NCBI GenBank assembly: GCA_008632985.1
Contig: QPGO01000065.1
Coordinates: forward strand, 1 to 64,000
Direction: 5' to 3'
DNA length: 64,000 nucleotides
Source of the DNA: Psammoneis japonica
Taxonomy: Eukaryota
Made by a program: the position numbers and the translations under genes. This document shows positions 28,130-53,880 of the stretch, one piece after another (position 1 is the first letter of the stretch; each line of letters starts with the position of its first letter). Below the pieces are notes generated by a model. The model had not been told where the DNA came from. It saw only the letters and a list, made by a program, of their open reading frames with translations, and did no database searches.

Positions 28130-29000
28130 GTGAAACAGGAAGCAGCTGACAGAAAAGTTAAAGTGCACAGGGAGACCCTCAAAACAATCCTCAGGATCCT
28201 GCCCAACCTTCAGGTCAGAGCTGTCAAGCGCAGCACCAAGACTGGAGCGTGGCTGTCAGTGTGCCCTTTGTCGCTGAATGGGCACGGCGGAACTCTCATG
28301 CCAAGAGTTCTGCGATGCACTCCATCTGCAGTGTGGCAGTGCTCCACCCAACCTCCTGGAGTGCTGTGATGGATGTGGATGCAAGTTCCCTTTGAGTCAC
28401 ACTCTTCAGTGTAAGAAGGGTGGCCCAGTCATCTCACGACATGATGAAGCATGTGACAACCTGGGTGACCCAATGGGCAGGGCTTGCAAACCTTCCCACA
28501 TGCGAGACGAACCCCCAATTGACCCTGTTGTTCACAGCACAGGAAGCTCAAGCACCCCCAATGGTTCCCCAGGAAACACCACCTCCAACAAGTCCAAGGA
28601 TGGCAATCGTAGAGACCTTCTTGGCATGAGATTTTGGGACAGAAGGACAGACATGGTGATGGACATTCGCACCTCCAACACGGATGCGGAGCCACACCTG
28701 TCCAAAACACCAGAAGAAGTCCCAGCAAGCCATGAATGTGAAAAGAAGTGCAAGCACCTTCAGCCATGTCTGGAACAACGTCTCGCCACTTCACACCATT
28801 TGTTGCATTGTGCAATGGACTTTTTGGCAAAGAAGCCAAGAGGCGATGCTCCGCCAGACAGCATTGAAACTTTCTGACAAGTGGCAAAAGCCACACTCTG
28901 AAGTGTGTGGCTGCATCAACGTGAGGATGAGTGTCGCCACAGTCAGAGCAACCCACTGTTGCCTCAGGGGATCCCGCATTCCCGCCTCTCAGATCAGCTC
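28130..29000 (+). mobile_element. 3' part of a CRE-like non-LTR retrotransposon (zinc knuckle plus restriction-like endonuclease), pseudogenised
   Basis: TGAWLSVCP, ELSCQEFCDALHLQCG, CDGCG..HTLQCKKGG..SRHDE, RRDLL..FW..DIR, EKKCKHL..CLEQR, FTPFV, LSDKWQKPHS, RATHCCLRGSR. These match CRE-clade motifs once Cys/His are read back as Tyr/Arg. Confidence 0.85.
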
Positions 29001-32000
29001 TCCAGGTGACCTCAGTGGGAAGATGGCACAGGTCTGTCCCTTTGTCGCAGAAACTGAACAACCCCAACACAATCAAACCCCACCCATCCAGACCATTTGC
29101 CTGCCAAAAGTCCACAGAGATTGCTGACACCACGCCCAGAAGACAAAAACCCATCATCGTGCTGAACACGATGCAAGATTCAGTTCAATGTTCGTGCGCA
29201 CTGCCTGCGAAATTGCGCGTGTCAACCCCCCCTTGCTCGTGCAACTGCGCTGGCCATGTGACATCCATTTCTAAACTTTGCACATGTGTCAGATTGTACA
29301 ATGCGTGCAGCACAACCTACAAACATGAATGTTTGACATTTCAAATTTTCCACGACTTGTCGAAACGCAATGACAATGGCGACTGCGAACACAGCACACT
29401 CCATCAATGACCACAAATTCACCATGACACTGCCATGTGTCAACAGCTTGTAATTCATTTCAATTGCGTGTGCCTTGCTGTGCTTTGAAATTGATTCATT
29501 GCAGCAAAAACAGCTGAAATGTTCACTTTTCTGCCCATTGCTTTTCGACCGCATAAGTCGACAATGAGCCCGTTGCACTCTCACGTGTCAATTGTGCCAC
29601 ACATGAGTTCACAAGATGCAACACACTGTTGATTGTTGTGGCTCTTGAAGGCAATGCCGTTGAGAAAACGGCAACCACAGAGTTGCCATGGTGAGGTGGT
29701 TTCTGGCTGCAGTGCACCCACATCAAATTCGCACTGAATCTGAGTCGTGCTTGTCGAGTTAGCGTGGCTGCCGCTTTGCACATCATGTGCCCACCATTCT
29801 CAGTGGTGGGGCCGGAGCAAAAAAAAAGGTGACTCAGCAGAAAAAAAAAAACAACTCAGGCTCTGGTCTCCGCCAAGTGAGTCTGCTGCCATTGGCAAGC
29901 ACTTGGTTGGTGAAAAGCTTGAGAAGCTCCTTTGTGCTTTGTGCTGAGCTGGTCAGATCCTGCACCCCAGAGAGCTTCATTGCCCAAACCCTCTTCTCTC
30001 ACTCAGATTGAAGCAGGAGGCAGCACTTGGCACTTTGCCAAAGTTTTGTCATTCTTGTCAGTTCTGAAAGCAGCCTTGTTGAAGGCTTCTTGAGGTCTGG
30101 TCTTCATGAAGAGATGCTCTCCTGACCTCCTTGGGAGACGTCACAGCAGTGGTGTCAGAGCAGGAGGGAGGAGCAACTGGTGGCAAAAAAGCAGCACAAA
30201 GACACCCCTCTTGACCAAGAAGCTCAAGACAGAATCACAACAAGAGAGGTGCTGCAAAAAAGCAACAGAGAATGAGAGTGAAGGGTGCCATGTCTTGAGC
30301 CACCAGCCAATCCTTCAGAGCCCGGCAACTGCCAGAAACAGCAACTCTGGTGAGTTGGTGAGACAGATTCCCCAAGGATTGCATGCTGTGCATGCACGCG
30401 TGTTTGCACTGTGCTGGTGGCTGGCAGGCTCAGGGTCATTTGGGGGGGGGGCATGTGGCAAGCAGCAGCACAGTGCAGAGACAAGAGACAGCAAAAAAAA
30501 ACACAATGATGGAAGATGTGCCTCTGTTGCGGATGCTTTCACCTGCAGCTCCTCCCATTCCCACATGCAACCATCCCCATTGGCAGGTGACAAAGCTCAA
30601 GCAACCAAAGCTGGTCAAAGGTCAAAGAGATGAGGGCAGGGATCTTTGCACTTTTGCTGGCACAAGGCGAGGACTGTCTCTGTTCCTCACATGCAATGAC
30701 AGGTCAGTCCAGGCACTGACAGTTGAAGCTTTTTAGGTCCGTTTGATCATCCATTCTCAGTGCTTTCCAAAATCTGCCCCCCAGCTTTTCTGTCTGGGGG
30801 GCTCCCAAATTCATTGAAAAATTCTCCTTCTAAAAACCCCAAGCCCAACCGGTGGCATCACGGCAGTTTAGTTGCCGGCAGTTGCTTGGTGTGGAGTGTT
30901 CAAAAAGCAAAAAAGCCTGAAAAAGATCAAATGTTTTCTTGCTGCACCAGTGATGTGCGTGCCTTTGCACATGCACAAATTGTGCATTGACACAAACATG
31001 AAAACAAGAAATCCTGCAAGATCTTTTTGAATGTTCCGCAGTGATGGCGGATCCTGTCCAAAGTTCCCGGTCAAAGAGAGTGGGTTTGCACTTGTGTCAA
31101 CATCTGAAAATTGAGATGCTGATTTTTTTAACATCATGGTGACTGTGAATCTTTCACAACAGCATTGGATGCAACAGCCAGGTTGGATCCCAAATTGCTC
31201 AAGGAGGTCATGTTTGTGATTGATGAGAGCATGAGAGTTGGAAGGCCTTTGCACAGCACATGTTTCCTTCTCAGGTGCTGCACTTGAATCACCCACACTT
31301 CCAAATTCAATGCCACTTGAAATGAAGAGCAACATTGTGAATTGAGCCATCAAGGAATTCAACAACTTTGAAAGCAATTGGGGTCTCATGTGCAAATTGC
31401 TTTTTTGGTTTGCAGAGATGGAGAAGTCAGCTGCAATGTTCCAGCCAGGCATGTCAAGAATGGAAAGAACCTTGGAACACAGTTGAAAACACAGCACATT
31501 TTGAGGAATGTCTGGGTGCTTGACATTGGTCTTCAGCAATGGCTTGAAAAAGTCAATGTTGCATGGAATGTTGCTTTTGAATGTTGGGAAGCAATGTCTT
31601 CACTCCTCGTCCAATGCAGCATGTTTTGGGGAGTGCTCAAAAGCTCCACAGTGTTTTTGAGGAACAACTCCAAAACACAGGCATTGCTTGGTGTGTTCAT
31701 TCTGAAAAGTGGGAAGCAATGTTTTGATTCCTCATCCAACATCAGACATGCAGGGTGTGATTGCATGGTTTGCAGCAGCAGGTGTGTTGCAAGGAGGGAA
31801 AGAAGCTCAGAGTGCAGTCAGCTGGGCTGCATTGTTTGAGGAATGCAGGGAAGTGCAAAAAACTTTTTGGGCAAGGTTTGGGCTGGAAAGATTGCCACAC
31901 CAAAATTTCTTGGTGCATGGACTGTGATCTCTGCTTGTTGTCATGTTGGTGCACTTGTTGTTGTGGACAAGTGCCAGATCACTTTAACAGAGTTTGTTTT

Positions 32001-33299
32001 TTTTACCTCAATTGGGCAGTGCTGCTCAAATCCAAATTTTTGGAACCATTTTTTTGTTTGGAAAGTGTCAACAGTTGAGATGTCAAGGTTCAAATCTGCA
32101 GCTCCAACAACAAAACTCACAATTGTGAAAGGGCCAATTTGGCCAGCTTTCATGGTTGTTCGAGCCAGCTTTGTTGCCCCAAACCCAGCAAAGAAGCACA
32201 TGTGGATGAATGTTTGGATGTCGTTGCAAAGGGTCCAAGATCACTGGTTGTTGTTGTGATGCCAACGGCAACACCTGAGATGTCAATCCCACCATGCTGC
32301 TGCATTGCTGGTCACTTGAGTCAGCATCATTGTCCCCCACCACACCCAGAGAAATCAATTGCAAGAGACTGTCAAGGACACAAAGTAGATTGTAAAGAGG
32401 ATCAGTGCCAAGTGGTGCAATCTTTCAAAGCACCACTTTTCATTGTCAATTAAATCCATTTCTGATCAGCTCTGCTTTTGGCAGAGAAAATCTGAGCTTC
32501 CATTTGACAAATTTCTTCTGCCTCAGCCCTGTGTCACTGTGCAAGTTTTGATGAAGTTTCTCAAGAAGAAGGTGGGTTTGCAAAAACTGGAGTTTCTTTC
32601 ACCACTTTCCAGAGAGACTTTTGCAGCAAAATGTCACACCGGGAGAGCTCATCTCACAGGGAGAGCACCTGCATTGTCCACGTGAGCAAGCCGAGCAAGT
32701 GAGCGCAGCCACTGCATGAGCCAGGGTCACTGGCCAGAGCAATGAGCCTGGTGTGTGTTGAAGTCATGTGTGCACTTTGCACCACAACACTGTGGAAAAA
32801 TTTGTGCCATGTGACGTCACATCACTCTCAAAACTTGATGCAGCCAAAGACTGCCACCCCACTTCTGTGCCTGCCAACTCCACCTCCAATCCTCCATCCT
32901 GGACCATTGTTGGCCACAAGCACTGCAATGCCAACAGCACCCTGCCTGACCCTTTCAACACCATCCTTGAAACACCTTTTCCCCCATCCCAACAAGACAT
33001 TGATGGAGACTGCATGTCCGACAATGCACACATGGATGGCCTCAACCTCTTCAGCAAAGATGATGACCCCAACAATGACGCCAATGCCACAAACATGATG
33101 TCACAAAGTGACATTGACAACTGTGACACCCTCAATTCATGGGTCCAAACATCAAAGCTTGGGCTGTTGAGGACAACACTGATCTGCAATCCTTCCACTG
33201 ACATCTCCAAGAGTGGAGCCCCCAAGCACCATGATGCATCTAGAGTGTCCACACTGTGAATGGTCTCTGCTGGAAAACACTGCCACCCAAAACCTCCCC

Positions 33300-36050
33300 A
33301 AGGCAGACCAAGCACAAAACCCTGGACCTCCATTTTCTCCTGCAAGACTTTCTCTCTCAAGCCAAATTACATTCTTGCCACACATGCAACTCCACCCAAC
33401 ATCTGCATGTTTGTGACCCAGCAACCTGTGCAACCATGTCACCCACCACAACCCCCCCTCACTGACACCAACTCCACCCTCATGGCCACACACACCTGCC
33501 TCACGGCACTGCCTGGCCCACCACACCACAACAGCTCAACACTCTTGAGCTTGCTTCCCCGCCATTTTGCACTTCCATGTGCCGCAAGCTGTCTCCCTCC
33601 ATGCGCCACAAAGTCTTTGTTGCCCCACACCACATCCTGACTTGGATCATTGAGTCCACCAAGAAGCCCTCACACACCTCAACCCCAACAACCCAGCTCC
33701 ACCCCATGAGTGCACATCTCTGCACCTTTCTGAAAACTGCTGCTTCTCTTTGAAGCAATTGCCCTTGCTCCACCTTGCTGCTCCCCAACTGCAAACCCCA
33801 ATCGCTGCCCATCAGCTGCCTCTGTTGCACCCACGCACCTTGAACTCTTTCAACAAGGGTGCATCTGCAAACCACATGACACCGCATGTGCCAACCCCCC
33901 CCCCCCCACACACACACACACTGCTCCCAACACCTGCTGTCACACAGCTCAAGTGTCCGTTGATGCCGATGACTTTGGTGCCACTTGCCATCGCGTCACT
34001 TCCAGCCTCCTGATTGCCACCATCAATGACACCCGCCTTCAGCTCATCCACAATCTGCACCCACCCCACATCCCACACCCACTGCAGGCATCTGCCACCA
34101 ACACACGGCACCCCACGCCCCCTCCATCCCCAACACACTTCACCGATGATTGCCTTTTTGCCGCCCTCAGCAAATGCAAGCCTGGCGCTGCTGCTGGCCC
34201 ATGCGCTGACTCCACCAACCTCCTCAAAGGCTGCACCCTCTACAAAACAAGTGCTCCCACTCAGCAGCAACTCTGCCTGCACCTTGTCACCTTCAAGGGG
34301 TTCATGATGATTCTCCAAACCAACTCCGTTCCCTCCAACATCTAACCCCTCACCACTGCTGACTGCTTTGCAGCACTGCGTGAAGACCCCACCAACCTCG
34401 ACAAGCTGCAACCCATCAGTTGCTGCGCTGCAGTTTGTCGCATAACCAGTGCCCGCACTGTGACCATCAATGCACCCGCTCTCACAGAACACCTCCTCCC
34501 AGACAGCCAATTTGGAGTGGGCATTGAGGATGGATCTCTGCGTGCTGCGGTCTGTTTTTTGGGAGCTCGTAATTTTTGTAAAAATGACCCGGATTCTTCA
34601 TGCTAAATGCACGAGCTTGCCAAAAACAATGTTTTGGCAACAGGCTGAACTTTGTCTGCTTCAAAAACACCACAAAATGCACAAACAATGGCTGTGAGCA
34701 TGCGTGACTTTTACCCCATCAACAGCAGATGTGTCCACAGTCAGTCAAATGCCGCCACTTGTCGGATTTTCCCAGAAAGTTGTGGCCAACATCTCACAAG
34801 AAGCCTGATTTTTGCAACAATTGGTGTTTTTTTTTTTTTGAACCTGGCAATGGGAATCTTTCGAAAATGACCCGTGACGCAAAAGCACAACACAATTGTG
34901 GACGCCTGCAGAGTCTGCATGTTTTTGCACTGAAGCTGTCATGCTCACACAATTTGTGCAAAAACAGACTTGACTGTTGTCGCATTGGGTCAGGTGCATT
35001 TTTGCAAATGCATTGAAGAAAAATGCACCTGATCAGAAAACAGTCAAGTCCATTTTTTGCGAAGTTAAAATTCACCAAGGACAGACAGACAGACTTTTCA
35101 ATGATTGTCTTGGCACTGTTCCACACATTTCTACGCAAATGACTCTACAGCACAAAAGATTGCTGTTGCAACAGGACACAGGCCAACAAGTGGCATTTGA
35201 AGCTTTGAATTTGCAGCTCTCATGCTAGTGCAACAGCCCTGAGAAGGGCTTGACGAGTGCACAAGTGCTTGGGGGCATCTCCAAGGCAGGTCAAAATGAC
35301 ATGATGAAGTGTGGGAAATGCGAGCTGTTTTAAATTAGACTGCAGCACATAGATCCATCCTTGAAGATGGCCTTGATTGCCTCACACATGCCACCCATGC
35401 CAATGTTGAATGTTGCCCCAACACCACCACACCGACCCACGCCTTTCTCGCCCTTGACCCACTCAACTTTTTCAACAAAGGCTCTCGTGCAACACCTGTC
35501 AGGAACTCCTTGACAGCACACCCACCTTCAGACACCTCATCCCCATCTTCAACCTCTGCCACAACATGCCAAACACATGCTGGTGCCGCAATCCAGATGG
35601 CAACTGGCAATCCTCCCCACAGCCAGAAGAGGTTTTTCTCAATGATGCCCACTTGTTCCCCCGCTCTCCGCTCTCATTTTGAGCACGGCACTCAAACAGC
35701 TCAACGCTGAACTTTGCCAACACTTCCCATCCTCTGACATTGCGTCAGCTGCTTCCCTCATCAATGACACCAACATGTTTGGCTCCCACAAACCGAGCTG
35801 CCGTGGTTCCCACAACGCCTCAACAAACCAGGCCCCCCCAACATGGAGTCCACCTCAACCGCTCCAAGAAACACATGCTTGCCTCCATCTCTGGCACCAG
35901 CCCTTTATCCAGCCTGCCCCCAACAAGTGCTGATGCCCTTTGCAAAGCCCTGTTTTTCCTTGACCCTGCCAACAATCCTGCCCTCCACCCCAAAATCACC
36001 ACTGCCCCCCGCTTCCTTGGCCAACCCATCAGCAGCCCTGCAGCATGTGA
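33300..36050 (+). mobile_element. CRE-like non-LTR retrotransposon reverse-transcriptase region, pseudogenised and interrupted by the 34528..35360 insertion
   Basis: KPGAAAGPCAD, LTALREDPTNLDKLQPIS, EHLLPDSQFGVGI|EDGLD, AFLALDPLNFFN (RT D..NAFN motif). Boundaries approximate. Confidence 0.7.
34528..35360. mobile_element. Non-autonomous TIR DNA transposon (833 bp), TTGA target duplication, possibly Kolobok-like
   Basis: Ends ggatggatct..ctgcgtgctgcggtctg and tagactgcagcacatagatccatcc are inverted repeats. ttga flanks both sides (34524..34527, 35361..35364). Removing it restores QFGVGIEDGLD in the host LINE. Confidence 0.75.
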
Positions 36051-36845
36051 CTGTCACGTGCATGTTCATGATCATGTGTTATTTGTGTGTCAATCGCACC
36101 ACAGTCGTGGATGCGCACAAAGGACAGAACGATCACACAGAGTTGATCGGATGTCGAGAATTGCAAACACGATCGATTGACGATGTTGACATCTTGCGTG
36201 TCAATGGCAATCACATCCAGACAATCTGTTGTCACGAATGCATTCTCCGAAAGGCCTTTTGTCTGCAGAAGCAGTGCAGAAGCTTCAGGCCATTGAGAAC
36301 TCGTTCGGAGAAACCAAAAATCACAGAGTGAAATTCAATCTCATAAATTTCCACTTTTCGCACACTGTTCTACTTTCGGGATTGTTGGATCACACCCTTG
36401 ACGAGCTGATTGAGGTTTGAGTCATCTGGAGGTCGGTGAGGACGTCCATGACAAAAAAACATGTCAAATCAGGCTCTGACAGTGCTGTTGATTCCAAAAT
36501 CAAAAAGGTTCCAAATTTGGTTCCCAAAATGGTCTCCTGTGTGGCACCTGAACAATCCAAAGTGAGTGCAAGGTCCAATCTTTGAAAAAAGAACACCTGC
36601 ATCACGGATTGAAGCCATTCTGAAAATGAGCCAGCAAAAGAGTGCAAGGGTGACTCTGAAAGAGACCCAAAAATGCGCAGTTCAAATGGCAATTGCACGC
36701 GGTCGCGTCGCGATGACGAAAATGCCGCTCGCAAAAAAAGAGATGAACGTCATGATTGATCAGGCGGTTCAAAAAACACTCAAAGCAAGTTCCTCGAACA
36801 AAGAAAAAGAGCACAAGGGCAAAGAATCAGATTCTGATGCCCTCA

Positions 36846-38176
36846 GGCACGTTCCCACCCTGATAATTTCGGCCGTAAAATAAATGTAATTTGGCCAAAT
36901 TTACGTGTTTACGGGCGTCAGGCTGGGAACGGATTCGATCGGTAAAAAAGATCAAAATCTCATGTCGAGCTCGGTGAGGACGCTACACGCTACAGTACCA
37001 CGCTACAGCACTGTTTACACTACTACTCTCTACTGCTAGCAGTAGCTAGCTCTAGAGAGCTGCTAGCTGTTAGGACTAGAGAGTCACCATAACATTGTCA
37101 GGGACAATCGTTGTCCATTTTGCGATTGCTCTACGGTGACCCAAGACTAATGATAACACCAGTGAAGGAAAGAAGAAACACACCAACATTCAATCCTCTG
37201 TTGACAGCAAGAGTTGCAGAGCGAGCATGAAAAAGCACGAAACATTGGCATGCAGTAAGACCACAGCATGCAAAACTATTAAATGAAATTTCTACAGAAT
37301 GTTAGGTGCTAAAAGGCACTGTTCTTAACTCTTGCGGTTTACCAATGGCCTAAATCCATTTCAAAGAGCAACAGAAGGGCTGCAGACAATGGAGCCAACG
37401 ACGTTGTGCAAAACATTGACCCCCACCAGCATCATTGTCCAAACTTACGACAAGATTAATGAAATGAGTGCACACAGCCTTCTTCATAGTCATGTTCCAT
37501 CAAAACGGAGCACAAGCCTTGCTGTTGTCGTCGACGTGACCAAAATTCTTGCATTCTTGACTCTTGACAGTCCATCAAGTAACAACCTCGAGCATGCACC
37601 AAAGAACCCCCTCAATGTAACATCAGATCATATGTTGCTATGAAGATTCGGCCTCAAGTCTGTAGACGTATGGTTTGTGAAGAATCCCAACGCGAAATCT
37701 GAACAAGAGAAACAAAGACATCAAAAATACTGTTAGTCGACACGGTCGTCATAAGCCACAACAACAACGAAAAATCATAATTCTGACAACTTGATCGCAT
37801 CAAGCGTAGTATTATTAACCTGTCTCTATATTCTTACCTTCGTAGACAGGACGGTCGTTCGTGTATGAACGGGTCCGTTCATCGCAGCAGCCATCATGGT
37901 TGTTGTGCGATCGGAGCGGAGAAAGAAAAATGGGGAGCTTGTGACGTGGCACGTTCGAGCTCCCAAAACGCCGAATTTACCGTGAAAATTATATTTACGG
38001 GAGAGAATTTACGACGACCGACACCTGTCGTCGTAATTTGCTGATAATTACGGCTGTAAATTGAAGGATGGAAAACAGACGTGCGATTTTTCTTGTACGA
38101 GAGTTTCTACAGGAATTTTGTGTAGAACGAAATTATATTTATTTTACGGCCGAAATTATCGGGGTGGGAACGTGCC
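36846..38176. mobile_element. Non-autonomous TIR element (MITE, 1331 bp), PIF/Harbinger-like
   Basis: About 47-bp TIRs, ggcacgttcccaccctgataatttcggccgtaaaataaatgtaattt and aaattatatttattttacggccgaaattatcggggtgggaacgtgcc (2 mismatches). 3-bp TSD tca at 36843..36845 and 38177..38179. Removal rejoins the Gypsy frame (DSDAL-SEEK). Confidence 0.88.
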
Positions 38177-38761
38177 TCAGTGAAGAAAAATGCCAATTTG
38201 ATCGGATGATCCAGACTGAATCCGAAGAACAATTTGGGTCTGTTCATGAATTGTTTGCTCTGCTGGATGTCAGGAAGCCTAGAAAAAAGGCAGAAACAAT
38301 TCATGCCAGTCCAGGAGTCATCATTTGTGTGAACACTTCCTTGGGAAAGGAGAGAAAAAAGCATCTGCGTGTTCCTGTCAACAACGGAACATCGTCAACC
38401 ACAATTTTGCGCAAATTCGTGCGAAAGTTGAGAACACAAGAATCCGCCACCAAAAACTTGGGAAACCAAGGGTGAGCTCTTTACGACTGACAGCAAACAC
38501 CGAATTCAGTTCTCACTGTGCGAATTTAAGATGCACTGATGTTCAAACAGCATGTGTTGAAAACACCAAATCTTCTTCAGGTTCAAATGATGTGATCATG
38601 GGACGCGACTTAATGTCCAGTCTTGGAGTCACATTGGACCGCGCAAATGAAGAAATCAAATGGGAAGAAGCAACTGCCCTGTGAAGAATGTTCGTGCACT
38701 CTTCGATGCCGATGTTTTCAAGCTGAAAACCGATCACATTGAAAAATGTGATGCCGTGAAT

Positions 38762-40340
38762 GGAGTTGACAATGGAACCAATGGTCCTCGACTCACATCA
38801 TCACGCCATCAATCCCAATCAAGTGACAACTGTGGCGATGCATCCAACCCAAATGAACACAACCAACTCAATCTTCTTCTCAAGAGGTTGAAATCTTTTT
38901 GAAAAGTTCCTCAGACGAATGCGTGGGAAGAACCAGTGGATCTCATTGTGGAAAATCTGACGCGATTCCACGACGCGTGAGAACCTTCTCCTGTCACAGT
39001 CTTTGGAGGCGTCCAATCAAAAGGAATTTGACCTGTTGTGAAAGATTGAAGTCTCAAAAATGACGTTGCTCTGAATCAGTCGCTCTGAGACTCATTGTCC
39101 AAAGAAAAAAGGTTGAGTTTGACCGCATCCGATGCTCAGAAGCTTGGTGAAAGGTTCACACACGTGGTGTGTCCTTTGCCCAATGTTCAGGAAATGCTGT
39201 TGAAGCAAGAACGTTTCATGTGTGCAATCTGTTTGATTCAAACATGGAATGCCACCATGTCAAATAAAAAAGGCACACGTCGTGCTCACACGAAAATCAT
39301 GCCGTGGGGAAAAAATGAGTGCTGCAGACTTCCAACGAGAAGCCACAGAGCCCCAGACATTTTTGCACAACACATGAGCGAAGTCATGGCAGGTTTGAAG
39401 TTGTCAGAACGACTGCAAATGATTGTTTGTGCCTGACAAAAAGTGACTTCAAAATGTCACCTGTGCAAGTGACAGCTTGGCACGGCATTCAAACGACTGG
39501 AACAGTCGCTCAGAAGGTCAACAACAAAAGTCCTTCACTGTTTGACTTGAAACAAACTGTCAACACTTCCATGCGGAGTTGACAATGGAACCAATGGTCC
39601 TCGACTCACATCATCACGCCATCGATCCCAATCAAGTGACAACTGCGGCGATGCACCCAACCCAAATGAACACAACCAACTCAATCTTCTTCTCAAGAGG
39701 TTGAAATCTTTTTGAAAAGTTCCTCAGACGAATGCGTGGGAAGAACCAGTGGATCTCATTGTGGAAAATCTGACGCGATTCCACGACGCGTGAGAACCTT
39801 CTCCTGTCACAGTCTTTGGAGGCGTCCAATCAAAAGGAGTTTGACCCATTGTGAAACATTGAAGTCTTAAATGTGAAATTGCTCTGAACAAGTCGCTCTG
39901 AGACTCATTGTCCAAAGAAAACAGGTCGAGTTCGACCGTGTCCGACACTCAGAAGCTCAGTAAAAGGTTCACACACGCGGTGCATCCTTCACCCAACATT
40001 CAGGAAATGCCGTTGAAGCAAGAACGTTTCGCACATGCAATCCATTCGATTCAAACATGGAGCGCCACCATGCAGGGAGAAAATGAGTGCTGTGGACTTC
40101 CAATGAGAATCTACAGAGCCCCAGATGTTTTTAAACAACACATGAGTGAACTCATGACAGGTTTGAAGTTGTCAGAACGACTGCACATGATCGTTTGCAC
40201 CTGACAAAAGGTGACTTCAAAATGTCACCTGTACAAGTGACAGCTTAATGCGGCATTCAAACGACTAGAACAGTCGCTTAGAAGGTTAACAACAAAATTC
40301 CTTCACTGTTTAACTTGAAATAAACTATCAACACTTCCAC
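38762..40340 (+). repeat. Tandem duplication of about 0.8 kb inside the Gypsy pol (copy 1 38762..39574, copy 2 39575..about 40340)
   Basis: Both copies start ggagttgacaatggaaccaatggtcctcgactcac and stay colinear to tcaacacttcca. Copy 2 lacks about 45 bp. Confidence 0.92.
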
Positions 40341-42520
40341 ACGTAACGATGTGCAATCGATTGCAAAGAAAATGGAGGCGATTCAAGCAATCGCAACACG
40401 AGAAAAACGTAAAGAACACTACGACATCTCGTTCTCATACGTTACTACTGTCGAGACATGTAGTCTCAACGATATCCTGTACAACACTAGCCAAATTCAC
40501 CTCGATAAGGGTCAAACGGCAAAAGTACAAGTACGGAACGAAAAGTCTCCGAAAATATGGAGCGTATCAAATCAAAAACTATAATGTTATCATACACGTA
40601 TTTCAATATTATACGTTACAACGGAAAAAAGAACTTCTGTCCATAGTGAAAACACTAAAAAAATTCCGAAATATACTGTTTGGCCAACACATTTATATAT
40701 ATACGGATCATAAGACACAACGGACAAAGTCATACGTTGACGACTTACAATAGAAAGCTTCAGTCCCGAATTAAAATACAGCGAGGGCAAGGCGAACATC
40801 GTCGCGATAGACGCGATCAGCCGACTTACTATAGAAAATTGAATCCTACGACAATGTTCTACCGTTAAAACGGGATAAAGACATTTCCCTCCAAATTGTC
40901 GGACGCGACATATCATACGAACACTTTTCGTGGAGGCGAGCGAGATCGAAAAATGCTCATATCATAAGGATAAAATCGCCTTTTTAAAGGACGATTTAGG
41001 AAAAAACAGTGACAGATTGGTGTACATTATACGTGTCCACTTCACACTATCCACTTCACACTGGCAAAAGACAAGCTTGGTGGAATGGCCAATGGGCTTC
41101 CCATCAAGGGCACCGGCACTGTCTCTGGGTGCTTCCAGGCAGCAGACGGCAGCAACATCAATGTCCAGACTCACTGCCAGTGTGCACCTTGTGCCAACGT
41201 GCATCTCCTGTCCCCCAATGTCTCTTTCAACCTGCGGGCATTCAAGGCCACTTTTGGGGCAACAGTGAGAGGTTTTTTTGAGCTTTGTTTCTGCAGAACA
41301 CCCAAGATCCACGTCACATGCAACAAATGCACAAACTCGCCGGTTGGCTCCGCATCTTGTGGGGCCATGTGTGTGCTCCTCAAGTCAATTTGAGCACTGT
41401 TGCTGACCCTGATGACCTCAATCTATCCTCCGGGCAGAAGTTGCTTGTGGACATCCATGCTTGGTTTGGGCACCTTAATTTTCCATGTGTCCAAGCTCTT
41501 CTCTGCCGGCCTCCTTTCACTGCTCTCAAGTTCACATCTGCTTCCAAGTGTGACATCCCTGAGTGCAACACCTGCAAGCATGCCAAGGCTCGCCGCTGTC
41601 CCACCAAGGCCCAACAGAAAACTGCTGTCCCTGAACACAATGGCACACTCAAAGCTGGTCATCTGCATCCAGGTCAGTCTGTGAGCGTCGATCACTTCAA
41701 GTCGCGTCTCAAGGGTTGCACCTGCAATTCCTGTGGTGAACCCTCCTCTCAGCAGCATGTTGGCAGCTGCATTTTTGTTGATCATGCTTCTGGGCTCATG
41801 CACACTGAGCATCAAGTTGGGCTCTCTGCAGTTGAGATGACATGGGCAAAACAAGGTCACAAGCAGATGGCTCTCAGTCATGGTGTCATCGTGCAGGAGT
41901 GTCTTGCCGACAAATTAGCCTTCAAGGGCAACAAGTTTGTTGCTCACATCCATGAATCTCAGCAATGCATCCACTGTTGTGGAACAAATGCCCATCACCA
42001 GAATGGCGTTGCTGAGAGGTCCGTTCATTCTGTGTCAAATGTGGCATGAGTCATGATCCTCCATGCCTCCATCCATTGGTGCAGTGGCATCGACAGCTCT
42101 TTGTGGCCTGTGGCAGTCAACTGCGCCACCCATGTCTGCAACAACACTCCGGGATCAAATGGGCTTTGTCCTGCCAATGTTTTCACCAGATCCACCATCC
42201 CACACCACCGTTTGCTTGGTTTGCACACTTGGGGCTGTCCTGTCCATGTCCTGGATCCCAAGTTGCAACAAGGTGAGAAATTTCCGCATTGGCAACCAAG
42301 ATCATGGTGTGGTTTTTTTCTCGGCCTCAGTTTGGTTCACGCTGGCAAGGTTCCACTGGCCTTGAACTTGAATGCCAGGTCCATTGCTCCTCAGCATCAT
42401 GTGGCATTTGACAATCTCTTTGCCACAGTTGCATTGATCAAGAGGGAGAACGAGCCACCTGATCACTGGGAAGAGCTCTGTTTGGAGAATGTCATCCAGA
42501 TGCCACTGGATTTGAGTGAC

Positions 42521-42820
42521 TGACAGAAAGTGAGGAAAATGGGGGCACTCGCCTGGAGGTGTCTTGGGTGATCAAATCCGTCCACAAACAGGAGAGCACA
42601 GGCTAAAACTGGGAATGTCTTGCACTGAAGTGTGTTCTAGACATTGTGAGAGATTCTGAGTTACTCTCAGAATCGGAGCCATGATGAAAGAAGGGTGGAT
42701 TCCGACAGGTTGTGGAAACTCCAAGGAATCACGGATGATTTCCATCACAAACTATCGTGAAGATGCAATGTCTTCAATCATGAGGTTCCGATGTCAAAAG
42801 GGAATGTGGAATCCCTGACA
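42521..42820 (-). repeat. 3' LTR of the nested Copia
   Basis: Colinear with 50212..50511 without indels; adjacent to the PPT. Confidence 0.95.
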
Positions 42821-45800
42821 CCCCCCTTGAACCGAATGAGGGAAGACATGGAAACGACTCATGAAAGCATGTGAGAAGGAAGGTGCCAAAGAGCACGATC
42901 GACCATGGGCCAAATTTTCTCGGCACTCTGAGTTTTGGTGGTGCAGTCGGCAAGTTGACTTTCTGCAGGAACCCAGGAAAGGAGGTGATGACCGAGTCGT
43001 TGGCCTTCGCGGACACATTGGAAACGTCGTTCGATGTGCCTGGTGCGGCGAGTCTGCTGGTCATTTTGGGCCATTTGGACAGCGGCTTGATTGTCCAGCA
43101 CAATTGTGGTGGGGGTTGTGGACAGATGCTGAGTGTCAATGGAGCAGTGGCGGGTGCCAAGGTGGGTGAAGTCGCAGGCCAGCATGCATGGGTGGGCCAC
43201 AGCCATCGCGCCAGTGCAGGCACCCATCCATTCGGATTCAGCGGTGGACATCACAATGGGGGTGGGGACAGTTGAATTGGCTTCCACTGTTGCCCCATTG
43301 AAGAAAGCCAGAAATCCCACAGTGGACTTCGCGGTGTCAGGACAATCCTGCCAGCTGGCATCGGAGAACACGACAAACACAGAATGATTGACGTTGTGTG
43401 CCTCACAGATGGCGTGGACGGGGCTCGCGGTGGGATCAGAATAAAATTTGATGGCGAGGTCTTGATGTTTCCGGAGATGACCAAAGAGGTGGACGAGAGC
43501 GTCGAAGTCTTTCATGCCAGGGTTGGCACAGGCCTTGGCGAGTTTGCAGGTGATCCATAAAATGTCGGCTTGGGTGTTGCATGCAAGATGCAGGATGGAG
43601 CAGACGGCGGATCGAAAATGGAGATCTGGATGTTTTGCGGAGATTGCCTTGGATTCAGCTTCATCCTTGGGGCGATTCGACTTGGAGTGGACACAGTCGA
43701 CGGGAGCTGGTGTGTCTTGAAAGCTGGGGCTGCCCCAGGGCGAGTCCGGTGTGAGGAAACGCTTGAGGAGATTGCAAACGTGCCGATGTTGGTCGAGAGA
43801 AAAAGAGCCGTCCTCGCATCGGTGGGTGCGCATCTGGAGGAACCATGTGACGTCGCCGGTGAAGGTGATGTTGTACTTGGAGGTGATGAGGTTCTCGAAA
43901 TCCTTTTCAACGCGATTGTGTGAGCCAAAATGGATCACATCGTTGGTGTAGAAATCAACTTGAGGCAGGAACCATCAGAAAAGTGCTTGGCGAAGAAGGT
44001 GGGATCGGCCTTGGAGTTGGTGTGTCCCTGGGCAATCAAAAATTCAGAGAGCTCAGTGGACCACCAGAGGCCACTGCGGATGGTGCCATGCATGCCTTTC
44101 TTGAGATGGAGCGAGATGCCAAAATATTCGGCACATTCCGGGAAATGTTGCTTGAGGATGGGATCGAATCAGACGAAGAGGCGGCCGCGAGCAGGAGCTT
44201 GGAGGTGGGCTCCGACGAAATCGCCATTTTTAACGCGTCGTTTGGCTTGAGCAGCAAAAGCAAGGAAGAGTTTGATGGCGCGGGAGGAGGCGTTCGGCGA
44301 CCAATTGTCGTCATCGTCGTTGCAGCGTTGCATGTCGCCGCATGCGCAGCAGCGAGCCTTGAGTTTCTTGAGAGAACCGTCGGGCTTCTGCTTGGCACGG
44401 AGAGCGAGGGTTGCACCAACAATTTTGTCATCGGGACAAGGACATTCGTGAAGAGCGCAGGTCTCGTTGTCGACAATGAGGTTTTTAAGCTCAGAGCCAA
44501 CAGCACGGAGCCAGGCGTCGCGGATGGCCGGAGGTTGTCTGAGGACAGCTTGGAAAGAACGAGGAACGGGCAAGCAATCGTCAATGGGGGTTGTTGCTGA
44601 GGCTTGAAGGATCTCAAGAGCCTGTTGCAAGGGGTCGGGACACTGGTGCCAGTTGTGATTGATCCAGGGAGAGGCAACGGCGGCGCTGAACGCTTGCTCC
44701 ATGCCGAGAGAGTCGTCGAAGAGAGTTTGCTCGAGGGTGTCGAGCGGGGAGACGGTGGTGGACACACACAAGTGTTTGTCGTCAGCAAAACGGACGGAAG
44801 TGAGTTTTCCGGCATTGGATCGGGAGGAGCGACGCAAGGTTGGAGCGGTGTTCGTGAGAGGAGCGGAGGTGTCCAATTGAGAATCATCGACAGAGGAGGA
44901 GTCCGAATCAGATGCAGATGGAGGGTCAACATCGAGGAAATCCTTGATGGTCCCAGCATGCTCATCTGCAGGTGTGTCGTCGTGATGAGTGAGGCCAGAA
45001 GAATCGTTGGGCATGTTGCGAATCGGGAGAGCGCCAGAGAACGGAACATGGTCATGCACCAGGGACGATTCGAAGAGTTCGTCGAAAATGGCGTCATGCG
45101 CAACAATCAGATTTTTGGGACCGATTCCTTTGGGAACATGAGTGAGGTAGCCAGCCTGGTTGGGAGCAAAACCAACGTGAATGCCACGAGAGCGTCGTTG
45201 GAGTTGTTGTTTTGCAGTGGTCGGGTGGCCGGTTTCCGGATTGAGAGGTTGGCACCTGTCGAAAGCAACGGGACAACCAAAGACACGGAAGTGGCCAATT
45301 TTCGGATGCTTGTTGAAAGCATGAAAATGAGGGGTAGTGAGTGAGCCATCCGGTGGTCAGGTGCCCTTGGCTGGAAGCACATTGAGCATCGCAACTGCGT
45401 GGAGGAAGGCGTGATGACAAAAGTGGGCCGAGAGGTGCGCGTTCACGAGGAGGCAGCAAATGATGTTGGACACAACTTGCCACATGCGTTCACTGATGCC
45501 ATTCATTTCTTGGTGACGAGGAGCGGCGATCTCAACCTTGATGCCATTGTCGGTGCCAAAAGAAATGAATTCGTGAGACAGAAAACATTGCGCAGAGTCG
45601 GCGCGGATGAAATTGGCGTCTTGCACGTGGCCAGTGGCCTGGACTTCTGCCATCCAGGATTTGAAGGCTGCAATGATGTTGCTGGTGGTGGGGCTCGTAA
45701 GACCACGCATGCCACAAAGGTGTCCTTTGTGCGCAGCCATGAAAAGATGGCACGGAAAAGAGGAATTTGGGGTGAGAGCAACATTGTGTGGGTTGGGAAT

Positions 45801-48800
45801 TGTGTCCACAAACACACGTGAAAAAGTGTGGTCCGGTTCAGTTGGGTCACACTTGATGCGGTTTCGTTTGCGAGATGTGGCAATGCGCGCATTGTCCAAG
45901 TGCGCGTCACTCCCGGGGGCAACATGACAGTCGTGCCAAACTTCGCCAATTGTGCCAGCCAAAAGACTTTGAGAGGCCGACATCCGAATCGGCGACCAGC
46001 AAGGTCAAGGTCGATGGCGGAGGTCGTGGGGTGGGAGGAGGACGGTGCAGAGTCTGCTGCATTGTCAGGAGGGTCGCTCGCGTTGGAGGAGCGAGGTGCA
46101 GTGGACGCATCGTGACAAGAGCGTTGGTGACGAAGGATCGGGAAGCTGAAAGTGTGGCCATCGCCAAAATCGAGCTTTGTGATGTTCGTCGTGATGTGCA
46201 CATTGAACAATTCGTTGTTGGCGAAGGCAGGGACCGAGAACAAATTCCGGTTGAGACCGGGGATGTGGTGCACATGGTCAAGGACGAGGTTGACGGGGTG
46301 TCCTTGATCATCCTGAAAATGCAAGGTGACAGAGCCAACCTTCGTAGCGTGGACTGTGGTGCCATCAGCAATCACAACGGGGACATGACAATCAACGGGA
46401 TCGTCGAGTGAGTCATGACGGACGAAGTGAGAGGATGCCCCAGAATCAACAAACCAACTGCGAATGTCGGTGAGGTCATGGTCACGAGGAAGTTGCTGAG
46501 GACGACACTGGGTGCGATCGTCGGCCATGAAGGCGACATGATCAGGAGTGTCTGCAACTTGGGCGGAAATGTGAAGCGCAGCAGTCTCAGGAAGGTCAAC
46601 GCTGAGTTCAGAAATGACAGAGGAGTCATCATCATCTGAAACGGTCGACGGCAGTTCCGTGAGAGGGGCCAGAGTGTGCGCGTCGGAAAAATCCAGGGGC
46701 AAAGTTGTGGCCGGTGTTGCCAGACGAGACGGCAATCCACTCGAGTGAGAGGGAGAGCGTTGCGTTGGCGGTGGGAGTGGGCCTGCAAGAAAGGGCATGA
46801 CAGATGATGAGTCAGTGCTGGAATCACATGAGTGATGGGCCAGAGGTGGTGGACCGGCCGAGGACGAGTCAGAGGACGTGTCGGAGTCGGGTGACACATC
46901 GGAGAAAGAGTCGCCGTCGCATGAGCCGGAGCGACTTCGCCGTGGACAGAGGGGTGGCATTGATTCATGAGAACAGACCGAGGAGCAACAATCATCCACG
47001 GGGTGGAGACTGGTGGCGGGGCAAGTGGTCGGCGTAGCATGGAAGAAAGAATCGAAGGACGAGTTGTCGTCAGTCGAGTCAAAGGCCGAGTTGAGATCAC
47101 CGGGATGGAGACAGAGAGATGGCACAGAGGCGTGAGAGGACAGAGAAGCGCAACAATCAATCTTGGGGGTGATGCCGGTGGCACAAAAAAGATTTGCGTG
47201 TCATCGGGTTTGGCAGCATTGAGACAGGTCAGCGGTGCAGGATTGGCGCGAGTGGCGGCAAGAGCGGTTTGCTTGGAAGCCGACTTGAGTTCTGGGCACT
47301 GCGGACAAAGATGTCCCTTCTTTTTGCAATGGCAGCAAGTGACCTCACTCAAGTCACGAGCAGCCTTGGGAGGAGAGTCCGCTTTGGAGTCGGGTGGCTT
47401 GGATCCATTTTTTAAGTCGCGAAGGCGTGAACGGCACTCGGCGGCGTTGTGGTTGAGCTCACCACAGCATCCACAAATCTCGTTCGTGCACTGGTGGCGT
47501 TGGCGTGGAGGCTGTCGCTGTCCATTGCGATGACTCTGCCGGGTGGTGGCAAGATGTGCATGATTGGACGGCGGTCGCAGGCGATTGCCACCGGAGGCGC
47601 GGTCGCGGTGCTGTGCGTTGTGATGTTGTTCGTCGATGCTGTAGAAAGTCTGGCGGATTTCTTTAAAAAGAAGAGCATCGGCAGATGAGAGACGAGAGGC
47701 AGTGCAAAATTCGGATTCGAATTGTTTGATGGCAGCATCACAGCGGGGGTGACTGCCCATTTGACTGAGAAAATGGGTGCTCTTCTCGGCGTCAGTTTTG
47801 ACAGGCAAGCCCGCATTTTTGTAGTTCCGAAATTTGCGTTCAAAACGTTCAATGAAACTGCTGGCTGACTCATCAGAATTGTGAAAAATCTGAAGGCAGT
47901 CGTTGGCACAGCAGTTCATGTGTTCCTGGGAGAGAGGGGCGCAACGTTGTTGCAGTTCCTCGAGCGCGAGTTTGCCGGAGTTTGAGCCGAGATCGGAGAT
48001 GTCCGACTTGTGCGCATCGTCCACATGCGTCCAGAGCAAGGCAAAAAGGGCCTTGTCAGTGGCAGCAGGAAGGGGACGAAGAGGTGCGGAAGGAAAATCC
48101 GTGACACAGTCAGTGAGCTCGGGAAAAGAGGCAAGAGAGCCGCGCAGCTCGTTCAGGAAAGAGTTGAATTTTTGACTGCGCGTGCATGGATTCTGATTGT
48201 GTTTCAGAATGCCAAGTTTCGTGTGGGACGCATGCTTCATGAGTGAATTAGCCAGTGATTCTGAGGAGCGCTCCGTTGCATCCGTGGTGCAATTGAGTGG
48301 CTCAGAAATGAAAGTGGCATCATGGTCCGAAGAAATGTCGTGGCGAGACGCGCGATCGGGCGGCGGACTGAGGGCAAATTGGAATGACAAGTCCAAATAG
48401 AGAGCCTCAGCTTGTCGCATCACATGCTGGAAACAGTCGAGGGCAAGTGTTGTGGATTCACAAGCCGGGTGGCGACGAAGAAGGGATTCGAACGACGATT
48501 TTGCAGAGTCAATCGTGAAACGAAGATCGGCCTCATTTTCGGATGCGCGAGAGAAGAACGGTTGTAGTTCCTGTTGAACACGAGCGAGGGCCTCAGTGGT
48601 GACGAGACGAATCAAAGAACTGTCCACAGTGGTGTCGACCGGGTCAGAGGTCGTGGGCTCCGGAGGAGAAGAGGCAGTCGCGACATCGGGCGCAAAGAGG
48701 TCCTCGTGGTCCGTGGGAGTTGGTGTGGCGAGAGCATCATCAAGAGTGCCATCCACATCCTGTAGAATGGGCGTGATGAGTGTCTCGAGGCGAGTGACAG

Positions 48801-50211
48801 GTGTGTCGTTGGTGTGATCGACATTGGAGAGTGCGGGAGTGGCAGATTCCGGGTTGGTCGACAGTGGCGGGAAAGATTCAGGAGCATCAAGAGGAGCCGG
48901 CGCTGGTGCAGTTGATGCCTGCGAATGAGACGGAGAAGGTGATGGCGGGGGAATGTTGTGGGTCCCCCCTTCAAGTGAGGCAGTCTCATCGATGGGAGAG
49001 ACGGTTTCAACGGCAACGAAAATGGTTTCGGGTGCCAAGGGTTCCTGAGAGCGGCGTCCGGATGAACGGCATGTTGTGGTTTGCTTTGTGAAGCAGCGAT
49101 CAAGGTCAGGATGCTCAAAAGGTTCACGTCGGGACATGCCAGTGCGACGGCGGTAGCGGCGCAAAGTGTGATGTTCCTGATTCGGCGTCAGTTTCTGGGG
49201 TTTCTTCTTGCGAGAAGAGGAGCGAAAATTGCCGGTGCGTGGGTTGGAAAAGTGAGATGATTTTGCAGGCGCGGCATGCGCAGAAGGTTTCTGGGTGCGG
49301 TTGTGCAAAGTGTCCAAATCGACATCCAAAATGTCCATCAAGTCATTGATGTCCATGAGAAGGTCATCATTTTCGTCATTGGTGAGGACGCAAAATTCAG
49401 TCGGATTACGAACGAACGATGGTGTCGATGCGGTGTTCATGCTGAGCATGAGAGTGCTTGAGGACACGAAAATTGGAGTTGATCTTGTCAGTCTCCGAAT
49501 TGAGACGGTCGACGCGGGATTGAATTTTCGCAAGATGATCCTGGAGGGCACAACGGACGTCTGCTTTGACTTGGTGGCGGCGGAGTTCCTCGGGCGATGG
49601 CGGTGCAGGAGCAGGAGTGCACTTGGAGGAGGCAATGGCGCATTGAACAGCACGTTTGGCATGACGACCAGCAGAGCGATTGTGCTTGCGGAGAGGTTTG
49701 GAGGGTCCAGAAGATGTCGTGGGCAAAGAAAGGGTTTTGCCGTTGCGGAGGCCACGAACGGGAGAGCAAACACGATGCTCAAAATCCGTGTTGGTCTCGG
49801 AGGCAGCAAGTGTGCGGCAGATGGCACAGTTAGAGCGACGAGTGGAGACTTTGTTGCGCCTGGGGACTTGCTGGGAAGAGTGGGCAGGCGGCTTAGAGCG
49901 AGGCAGAGGAGTGCGCTTGACGCGACGGGTCGGAGTGTGGCGTGCGCCCTGGGTCACGCAACTGGAACGACGACGACATGTGGAGTGCAAGCCAGCATGC
50001 TGGACCACAGAGCCAGCATCAACATGATGACAAAGGTCACGAGGGTGGGCCGTGGGGAGTTCATCAACAGAAAGTCCGCGGGCCGCGAGGGAATCGTGCA
50101 AGTTGGGAGCGTGCGATGACGCCTTGCGACGAGAAGAGGCATGAGACGCATGACGAGCGTTCGACGCAAAAGAAGTGGTCTCCTTGGACCAAACCGGAAG
50201 AATTGCAACCA

Positions 50212-50511
50212 TGACAGAAAGTGAGGAAAATGGGGGCACTCGCCTGGAGGTGTCTCGGGTGATCAAATCCGTCCACAAACAGGAGAGCGCAGGCTAAAAC
50301 CAGGAACATCTTGCACCAAAGTGTGTTCCAGATGTTGTGAGAGACTCTGAGTTACTCTCAGAATCGGAGCTATGATGAAAGAAGGACAGATTCCGACAGG
50401 TTGTGGAAACTCCAAGGAGTCACGGATGATTTCCATCACAAACTGTCGTGAAGATACAATGTCTTCGATCATGAGGTTCCGATGTCAAAAGGGAACATGG
50501 AATCCCTGACA
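50212..50511 (-). repeat. 5' LTR of the nested Copia
   Basis: Colinear with 42521..42820; followed on the minus strand by tggttgcaattc (PBS-like). Confidence 0.95.
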
Positions 50512-52739: not shown

Positions 52740-53880
52740 GCTGCTCCATTGCAACCTTGAGCTCTTGCTCATTCTGACACAAGCCACTTCATCACATCTT
52801 CAGCTCCGATCATCAGACGGATGCCGGAACATGCCTTGTGAGGTGAGCACTCGAGGGCAAGTTTTGTGACATTTTCTGTTGTTGTGCTTGAAAAATCAAT
52901 GGTTTTCATCGTCTTCATTGTCAGGGTGAAGCTTTCTCATCCATTCTTTCAGAAAGAATGCAAATCAGAAGTGAAGCGAGGCACAGACGACGAGAGTTTT
53001 GTTGCGCAAGTCAAACGTCTGAGGAGCCGCTCCCCGCCAGCAGTTGGCATCACTTTTTGAGATGCACCAGCTCAAGAGCCCTCTGGATGACTGGCTTAGA
53101 TGTGCAGTTCATTGATGACAGATCTCCAAGAGGTGCCACATGACTTAGAGACTTTCGTCTGCTGCCTTGGTCGGACCAGCCCGGTCCATCATGACCTCCA
53201 GCCCAACAGCTTCCGGCATCTCAAGTGCTTGCTGAGCTTTGCTTTTCATTGCAACCACCCACAATCATTGCAATTGAGAACGCGTGGCAAGGCACTGTTG
53301 ATTTGACCACAACAACAAATCTCCTTGCAGTCCGAGAAGATTTGGTTGTCAAGTTGGGCGGCGGCTGGCAAGCCACTTCCAGGCGGATCTGTGTTTGTTC
53401 TGCTCATGTGGAACCACCCAAAAATGGCAGACACCCCATCCTGTTGTCTGCCATGTGCATGCGAGTGAACAGACATGATTGCATCCAATGCACTCTGACT
53501 TGAACCTCAGAAATGGCGTTGCCGGCCGATGCACCTGCGGCAGAAATTTTGATGAAGAGCAAAAAAAGCGTCAGCAAAAGTGTGACATTTGACAGTTTGA
53601 GTGGCAATCACCCAGCAATGTCCTTCCCACAGGAACGATCAATGCATTCCATGTGTGCTTGCCTCTCAAATTAAAACATTGACGAAGTCGCAACCGAACA
53701 ATCACCCTTGGATGCGGCATGTTCTTGCCACACAAAAGCACGAAGCACGGCGGTGCTTGCCCAACAAGCACGAACATCCGGAGGTAACTCCATCCACACA
53801 ACCACTTCGATTGAATCGTTCAATGAATGTGTGTAACCTTTGTGTACTTCGGTCATAGAGGCATTCGCAACCTTCGATTG
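52740..53880. mobile_element. Unassigned TpA-depleted repeat remnant
   Basis: Same compositional signature. TA reappears gradually from about 53670. No recognisable domain. Confidence 0.4.

Follow-up and report, generated by a model that had tools for sequence, protein, structure and literature searches.

The DNA analysed here is a 64,000-nucleotide stretch, hereafter the window, comprising positions 1 to 64,000 of contig QPGO01000065.1 in the Psammoneis japonica assembly GCA_008632985.1. Its central feature is a decayed pol region of Ty3/Gypsy-like retrotransposon type at about 36400-41052 on the forward strand, in which a protease-like stretch near 38590, a reverse transcriptase (RT) and an RNase H can be recognized. 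Two tandem copies of part of the RT follow one another, and the tract that runs through copy 1 and most of copy 2, as well as two Copia-type elements directly downstream, one nested in the other, is almost devoid of the dinucleotide TpA (TA in counts). The features on which the argument rests are given below, where o/e denotes the ratio of observed to expected counts and LTR a long terminal repeat.

36400..36840, forward strand: 5′ part of the Gypsy-like family sequence, free of TA (contig set, TA counts)
36841..38174, unstranded: TA-normal 1334-bp insertion with 62-nt inverted repeats (36831-36892 and 38130-38191, 87% complementary)
38175..40230, unstranded: TpA-depleted tract in the Gypsy-like element, 9 TA against about 147 expected
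38762..39574, forward strand: tandem copy 1, RT segment of the decayed Ty3/Gypsy-like pol, 1 TA (at 39265)
39170..39172, forward strand: Cys codon TGT of copy 1, where the (Y/F)P(I/L)P motif has Tyr/Phe, placed by alignment to relatives
39575..40340, forward strand: tandem copy 2, the same RT segment, keeping 12 TA, all in its 3′ part
39983..39985, forward strand: His codon CAT of copy 2, where the (Y/F)P(I/L)P motif has Tyr/Phe, placed by alignment to relatives
40232..41052, forward strand: 3′ part of the Gypsy-like element (RNase H and a stretch like 'RWRL..ADALSRL'), TA normal to high; family depth ends at 41052
41053..42520, forward strand: integrase part of the outer Copia-type element (integrase-like at 41100-42500), TpA-void (Pfam, composition)
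42521..50511, reverse strand: nested Copia-type element (RVT_2, Pol_BBD, SH3_retrovirus), TA o/e about 0.02-0.1 per kb and CpG o/e about 0.8-1.1
42521..42820, unstranded: low-coordinate LTR of the nested Copia element, 300 bases
50212..50511, unstranded: high-coordinate LTR of the nested Copia element, 300 bases
50512..53700, forward strand: RT part (RVT_2) of the outer Copia-type element, TpA-void and CpG-poor (Pfam, composition)

The Ty3/Gypsy assignment draws on a Pfam RT_RNaseH match (E 3.3e-07), on a 'RWRL...ADALSRL'-like stretch that aligns to relatives, and on frameshift-aware alignments to relatives whose records carry PF00078, PF17917/9 and PF00665; a pol of this type has an RT with (Y/F)P(I/L)P, LDLxxGY and Y(I/L)DD regions, followed by RNase H. 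The named relatives of the lineage are from Nitzschia inconspicua and Mayamaea pseudoterrestris. RVT_1 was not detected in decayed copy 1, where Pfam was applied to a single-frame read-through and returned no family at all.

A repeat search places the starts of the two copies of the 813-base RT segment 813 bases apart, and in a blastn alignment of 810 columns they are 85.6% identical. Other copies of the family, represented in an independent contig set of very high depth (2577 contigs aligned; 40 of 476 variant positions listed), lack the duplication and show the joints 39573 to 40364, 39574 to 40358 and 38746 to 39585; two further read sets contributed almost nothing. The global alignment of copy 1 with copy 2 has 767 columns, with 3 differences in the first 262 and 71 in the last 505 (86% identity), the latter made up of 61 transitions and 10 transversions. 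About 45 nt of copy 1 (39260-39305) are missing in copy 2, which therefore carries a deletion, since relatives have these nucleotides.

The differences in the last 505 columns are concentrated in particular dinucleotides. Reading copy 1 before copy 2, TG faces CA at 11 sites and CA faces TG at 4, TG faces TA at 7 and CA faces TA at 5, and TA in copy 1 stands opposite anything in copy 2 at 0 sites. The CpG-type classes are TG/CG at 7 sites, CA/CG at 1, CG/TG at 2, CG/CA at 0 and CG/CG at 9. Independent per-base differences would be expected to yield 1.89 reciprocal TG/CA sites, against the 15 observed (Poisson P 1.8e-9), and a permutation test gave 15 in none of 20000 permutations. TA-derived sites hold 42 of the 71 differences, copy 1 retains 1 TA in 813 bases against 60 expected from base composition, and the 12 TAs of copy 2 all lie opposite TG (7) or CA (5). 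The individual sites that had first drawn attention to this pair are present as described, including TGT at 39170..39172 and CAT at 39983..39985, in frame with P-L-P-N and P-S-P-N, the neighbouring reciprocal sites at 39133/39946, 39145/39958, 39148/39961, 39177/39990 and 39184/39997, and gaa aCA aac TGt in copy 1 (39553, 39558) where copy 2 keeps gaa aTA aac TAt (40321, 40326).

Reciprocal TG/CA sites may descend from TA or from CG, and protein relatives were used to choose between the two. A search of 1.84 billion representative proteins returned 25 weak, distant matches (best E 2e-07), five of which (P0001, P0002, P0009, P0013 and P0014) cover the RT stretch and were aligned to each copy in a frameshift-aware manner, with BLOSUM62 deciding at each site which dinucleotide state, TA or CG, yields residues nearest the relatives. 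At the motif these proteins read SDFRELNKRIKRKP(Y/F)PIP.IQ(D/E), and the 39170 site corresponds to the conserved aromatic residue; relatives have Tyr or Phe there and never Arg, in agreement with the TAT (Tyr) ancestor that the original prediction had proposed. The count of TA against CG that it had called for comes out at 10 reciprocal sites better as TA, 4 worse and 1 tied, with BLOSUM62 sums of 32.9 for the TA state and 8.8 for the CG state. Sites that clearly favour TA are 39170 (Tyr/Phe), 39221 (Tyr), 39325 (Arg of RLPMG), and 39184 and 39358 (both Ile), and at 39177 and 39126, where relatives have Ile, the codon would give Leu or Val under TA and Ser or Ala under CG. Among the 40 listed variant positions of the family contigs, the majority base is T at 38845, 38881 and 39055, each TA in the family and CA in the window, and none of the reciprocal sites is included. 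A word-indexed search with the RT stretch of copy 1 found no match and no close intact family member.

The two LTRs of the nested Copia element provide a second natural comparison. They differ at 22 of 300 columns (93% alike), with 22 transitions and 0 transversions. Sixteen of these differences fall at TA-derived sites, comprising six reciprocal TG/CA sites (12 differences) and four sites where TA in one LTR faces TG or CA in the other; the remainder are three CG-type differences and three others unrelated to TA or CpG. Two sites are still TA in both LTRs, most TA sites having been lost, and CpG is intact in both at 7 sites. Because LTRs are identical at integration and these resolved their TA sites independently, the change took place in DNA after integration, and because single CpG losses are so few, six double CpG losses are not credible, whereas TA as the substrate fits the counts. 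From this pair, TA change is far faster than background mutation or CpG decay.

Judged from its residues, a public protein record is a replicate of the same change. P0012, a 699-aa Gypsy-type pol fragment, contains 0% Tyr, and at the 24 columns where all three of its closest relatives (62-67% identical) have Tyr it has His 14 times, Cys 9 times, Phe once and Arg not at all. Leu is replaced by Pro 7 times, and Phe, Cys, His and Arg columns are kept. Among 120 proteins related to P0012, it alone is free of Tyr. Relatives, TA loss in the copies, the family-majority T, the LTR pair and P0012 thus form five independent lines for a direction from TA to TG or CA, and together they support an ancestral TA that would have been resolved to TG or CA independently in each copy, as originally proposed.

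Depletion of TpA extends well beyond the tandem copies, with void tracts at about 7.6-11.5, 26-36.4, 38.2-40.2, 41-53.7 and 60.8-64 kb of the window. TA o/e is about 0.02-0.1 in these tracts compared with about 0.55-0.7 elsewhere, or 135 TA in 32000 bases of the five void tracts compared with 1229 in 29117 bases of the normal tracts, and TG+CA reaches 1.6-1.9 times expectation in the void tracts. Kilobase by kilobase, the missing TA and any missing CG add up to the surplus of TG+CA. At 43-50 kb, CG o/e is about 1 (0.8-1.1) while TA o/e is about 0.02-0.1; since CpG is at expectation there, TA is the only possible source of the TG+CA surplus. TA seems to be lost much faster than CpG. The SOUL and RPE65 genes of the window sit in TA-normal DNA.

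Within the Gypsy-like element, the 3′ edge of the depleted tract is sharp (40230/40232) and lies inside copy 2, so tract edges do not follow element edges, and 40232-41052 shows the unmutated composition of the family. In 80 metagenome loci of the same Gypsy lineage, which are best matches and hence biased toward intact copies, TA o/e ranges from 0.42 to 1.06 with a median of 0.72, and 0 of 80 fall below 0.42. These loci, with the TA-normal 3′ end of the element, exclude native composition as the cause of the low TA. The 1334-bp insertion, with a TA-normal block at 36864-38157, is absent from other family copies, in which 36840 joins directly to 38175, and probably represents a non-autonomous DNA transposon, either inserted later than the hypermutation or not targeted by it.

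Flanking bases influence the loss. With R for purine and Y for pyrimidine, R-TA-Y drops from 12.5 per kb in normal tracts to 0.2 in void tracts (98% lost), and Y-TA-R shows the least complete loss, from 6.3 to 1.9 per kb (70% lost). R-TA-Y supplies 10 of the 15 reciprocal tandem sites, a figure that becomes 13 of 21 with the LTR sites, compared with a share of 0.30 among the TAs of normal tracts (P 0.002); Y-TA-R supplies 7 of the 12 TAs retained in copy 2. These data fit a target of 5′-TAY on either strand; R-TA-Y, being symmetric, would then present a good target on each strand and leave the outcome to chance.

The explanation that best accommodates this evidence, to which we assign a probability of about 85%, is DNA-level hypermutation of mobile-element DNA after integration, converting TpA to TpG or CpA. 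The comparisons above demonstrate its direction, dinucleotide specificity, timing after integration, tract-like extent and sparing of host genes. Mechanistically, TpA is palindromic, and its conversion to TpG or CpA would amount to an A-to-G change on either strand, after which the altered site would no longer be a target. Both tandem RT copies would descend from one sequence whose 3′ 505 bases still carried no fewer than 27 TA sites, and each would have been struck separately, turning Tyr TAT into Cys TGT in one and His CAT in the other. At the preferred R-TA-Y site, both strands would read 5′-TAY and the strand struck would be a coin toss, which would explain why reciprocal differences pile up there, and Y-TA-R, presumably struck most slowly, would for that reason make up most of the TAs remaining in copy 2. 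The chemistry is put forward with less assurance, with about even odds for adenine deamination in DNA by a candidate ADAT2/TadA-like enzyme and a lesser chance for mispairing of a modified thymine, which would leave the same footprint. In tRNA, adenosine deaminases of the TadA/ADAT2 type have as their substrate A34, which lies beside U33 in the same UA step.

Several observations weigh against this reading. The first 262 columns of the copy alignment are nearly identical, all TAs having already gone alike in both copies, which needs a second event, either prior hypermutation or later gene conversion; the evidence leans towards conversion, because differences unrelated to TA and CpG number 19 in the 505 columns of the divergent part, compared with 1 in the other 262. 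Relatives are only about 30-35% identical to the decayed copies, CG is the better-scoring state at four of the 15 reciprocal sites, alignments at 39034 and 39572 are weak, and 39430 is better explained by an ancestral Cys (TGC), the state of copy 1, which is found in close relatives. About 10 tandem differences at TG/CG-type sites depart from a pure TpA picture, and T-to-C changes at TpG that create new CpG are indicated at 39198/40011, 39234/40047 and 39336/40104 by conserved Leu/Met in the relatives and at 39165/39978 by the family majority. Where the flanks are asymmetric, the predicted dependence of strand choice on them was borne out in 3 of 5 tracts only and is tentative, and eight consecutive TG/CA sites at 39133-39230 looked suggestive of a one-strand stretch, but strand-coordinated runs were not significant (7 observed against 6.9 expected, runs test by hand), nor was the 11:4 split of reciprocal orientation (P about 0.12). 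Finally, the duplication junction at 39574/39575 is spanned by none of the listed contigs, which are other family copies; the tandem duplicate of the original prediction is accordingly confirmed for the assembled sequence, by repeat spacing and blastn, and is putative for the DNA of the organism.

The T-to-C changes at TpG may mark a minor second target of the TpA process or may be ordinary mutation. They are not reported in the accessible text of the preprint on the chlorarachniophyte alga Bigelowiella natans, where a TpA-directed process has been described (Mettrop et al., 2026, bioRxiv 10.64898/2026.01.13.699255).

The unspanned junction, together with the draft state of the assembly (with its N run at 5685-6194) and a best-matching read set in which only 0.41 of the words sampled occur and which could come from the very sample that was assembled, is what speaks for an artefact, in the form of base-calling errors at a modified TpA base or of haplotypes or family copies misjoined in tandem by the assembler. 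Base-calling error should produce one fixed outcome for any given context, yet outcomes differ between the copies, and random errors would leave TA in place and create CG. P0012 and the short-read mutation-accumulation data of the preprint, as far as its accessible text goes, show the same changes independently (bioRxiv 10.64898/2026.01.13.699255). Misjoined alleles would still descend from one insertion, so the direction stands even then, and an artefact is improbable, although it survives slightly better than the other two alternatives.

Classical decay of methylated CpG, in which a CG ancestor (Arg CGT at the motif) would have become TG or CA in each copy, has in its favour that TG/CA reciprocity is its textbook signature, that neighbouring tracts are CpG-poor (o/e 0.1-0.5), and that C-to-T change at CpG does occur here. 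Ordinary CpG-to-TpG decay is seen at 38833 and 38947, where the family majority is C and the window reads TG (both among the listed variant positions), at 39114, where an Arg codon became TGA in copy 1, and by manual reading at 39120. CpG decay cannot, however, remove TA, of which copy 1 has 1 rather than 60, and independent CpG loss fits neither the tandem pair (CG/CG 9, single 10, reciprocal 15, CG/CA 0) nor the LTR pair (CG/CG 7, single 3, reciprocal 6). The nested Copia element has a CpG o/e of about 1 yet shows the full TG+CA surplus, Arg is never found at 39170 in relatives, and P0012 has Arg at 0 of its 24 Tyr columns. This alternative is largely refuted and very improbable.

Least probable of all is RNA editing before integration, that is, ADAR-like hyperediting of double-stranded transposon RNA followed by reverse transcription, since, although retroelements do pass through RNA, new insertions are copied from sense RNA alone, yet both strands have been struck, the LTRs of one insertion and the tandem copies differ at TA-derived sites, and runs of A remain unchanged. 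The A-to-G changes with U 5′ of the edited A are of a kind that ADAR favours according to the preprint, but in the part of it that is accessible those of B. natans arise de novo in single-copy genomic DNA (bioRxiv 10.64898/2026.01.13.699255).

The remaining features of the window are as follows, ORF denoting an open reading frame.

315-1307, reverse strand: SOUL haem-binding protein gene, in TA-normal DNA
7624..11500, unstranded: TpA-void tract, no Pfam match in six frames
14278-15444, reverse strand: RPE65/carotenoid-oxygenase ORF, in TA-normal DNA
26000..36400, unstranded: TpA-void tract, CpG-depleted (o/e 0.1-0.5), from composition; no Pfam match on ORFs
56005-56715, reverse strand: RPE65/carotenoid-oxygenase ORF, possibly a fragment or paralogue, in TA-normal DNA
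60777..64000, unstranded: TpA-void tract running to the window's end, from composition; no Pfam match on ORFs

The best named homologues of the ORF at 14278-15444 are in diatoms, including Odontella aurita, Conticribra weissflogii and taxa with truncated names ('Asteri...', 'Cosci...'), at no more than 61% identity. Void tracts outside the Gypsy and Copia elements showed no protein similarity to Gypsy or Copia queries and no Pfam match on their ORFs. TpA-void tracts that are also CpG-poor (o/e 0.1-0.5) lie at 26000-36400, 51000-53000 and 61000-63000, in contrast to the younger nested Copia element with its normal CpG. Void DNA at 42859-50278 carries long overlapping ORFs on both strands, for example one of 1151 aa at 46372-49827 with no Pfam match. 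GC skew is +0.28 at 43000-50000 and -0.27 at 33000-36000; the nested Copia element has about 35% C and about 20% G on its coding strand, and TG/CA imbalance accounts for only a small part of this skew. The assembly has a gap of 510 N at 5685-6194.

That genomic DNA can be naturally rewritten from A:T to G:C at a single dinucleotide is a very recent finding, made in one alga and for integrated viruses. A near-saturated footprint in LTR retrotransposons of a probable diatom would mean that the process is not the curiosity of one lineage, that transposons are a main target, and that it far outruns CpG decay. The tandem copies and the LTR pair serve as built-in natural experiments on its direction, timing and R-TA-Y preference, the last of which would have to be shown by any candidate enzyme. 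In practical terms, the loss of TAA and TAG in void tracts gives rise to long spurious ORFs and to Tyr-free proteins in databases, and such tracts evade profile-based annotation of transposons, as does the 1151-aa ORF. A wider proposal, offered tentatively, is that diatoms, like the chlorarachniophyte, may have a post-integration defence that erases TpA from retrotransposons in tracts through a DNA adenine deaminase acting at 5′-TAY, and that it may be old and shared across algae of the stramenopile, alveolate and rhizarian (SAR) lineages. If so, TpA erasure would be the mirror image of fungal repeat-induced point mutation (RIP), removing stops and leaving long Tyr-free ghost ORFs.

Among established systems, animal ADAR and APOBEC enzymes offer a parallel in deaminase-type hypermutation, with clustered transitions in integrated retroelement copies, but their substrate is RNA, or cDNA not yet integrated, changed on one strand and in a looser context, whereas the changes here are post-integration, on both strands and strictly at TpA. 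Decay of CpG through 5-methylcytosine likewise turns a palindromic dinucleotide into TG or CA depending on the strand and leaves the site immune after one change; here, however, the substrate is TA, and the LTR pair has 16 TA-linked differences compared with 3 that are CpG-linked. RIP is similar in being a DNA-level, dinucleotide-specific and transition-only defacing of mobile or repeated DNA, with duplicates struck independently and frames ruined. Its course is the reverse, as it converts CpA/TpG to TpA, creates stops and makes DNA AT-rich, whereas here TpA becomes CpA/TpG, with loss of TAA and TAG stops and a gain in GC. The RIP signature of TpA excess and CpA/TpG deficit is accordingly replaced by a TA deficit, with TG+CA at 1.6-1.9, and there is no sign here of repetition as the trigger, parts of a very high-copy element being untouched.

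The closest counterpart is found in B. natans, as described in the accessible text of the preprint. In mutation-accumulation lines, the integrated giant virus and virophage acquired 231 de novo mutations, of which a single one was neither A-to-G nor T-to-C, and all the others were at TpA; the rate of change from TpA to TpG or CpA was about 1000 times background and confined to integrated viral DNA. That genome has 124 clusters of windows poor in TpA and rich in CpA+TpG, reverse-transcriptase families are enriched among its TpA-depleted genes, and an ADAT2-like protein has been proposed as the candidate enzyme (bioRxiv 10.64898/2026.01.13.699255). As there, the changes in the window are nearly all A-to-G or T-to-C at TpA, giving TpG or CpA according to strand, they lie in local tracts of foreign or mobile origin in genomic DNA with host genes spared, and their long-term footprint is TpA depletion with CpA/TpG gain. 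No report of TpA hypermutation in diatoms was found in the open-access literature and bioRxiv, as far as accessible text goes, including PMC2806351 and bioRxiv 10.1101/2025.10.24.684338.

The differences from B. natans (bioRxiv 10.64898/2026.01.13.699255) concern host, target, extent, context and the kind of record. That host is a chlorarachniophyte, whereas homologues here point to a diatom, a stramenopile, and the accessible part of the preprint names neither diatoms nor stramenopiles. The targets here are LTR retrotransposons, and 'retrotransposon', 'LTR' and 'Gypsy' are not words used in that text. Loss is near total here (o/e 0.02-0.1), compared with a Rho of 0.45 in their NCLDV (nucleocytoplasmic large DNA virus) region, and RTAY is preferred over YTAR, flanking context not being discussed in what is accessible of the preprint. 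De novo mutations were seen in B. natans, whereas the process in the window is known from its sequence footprint. What the window contains is thus a recently described process in a new host lineage and a new target class, near saturation, with its timing and flank preference readable from the DNA itself.

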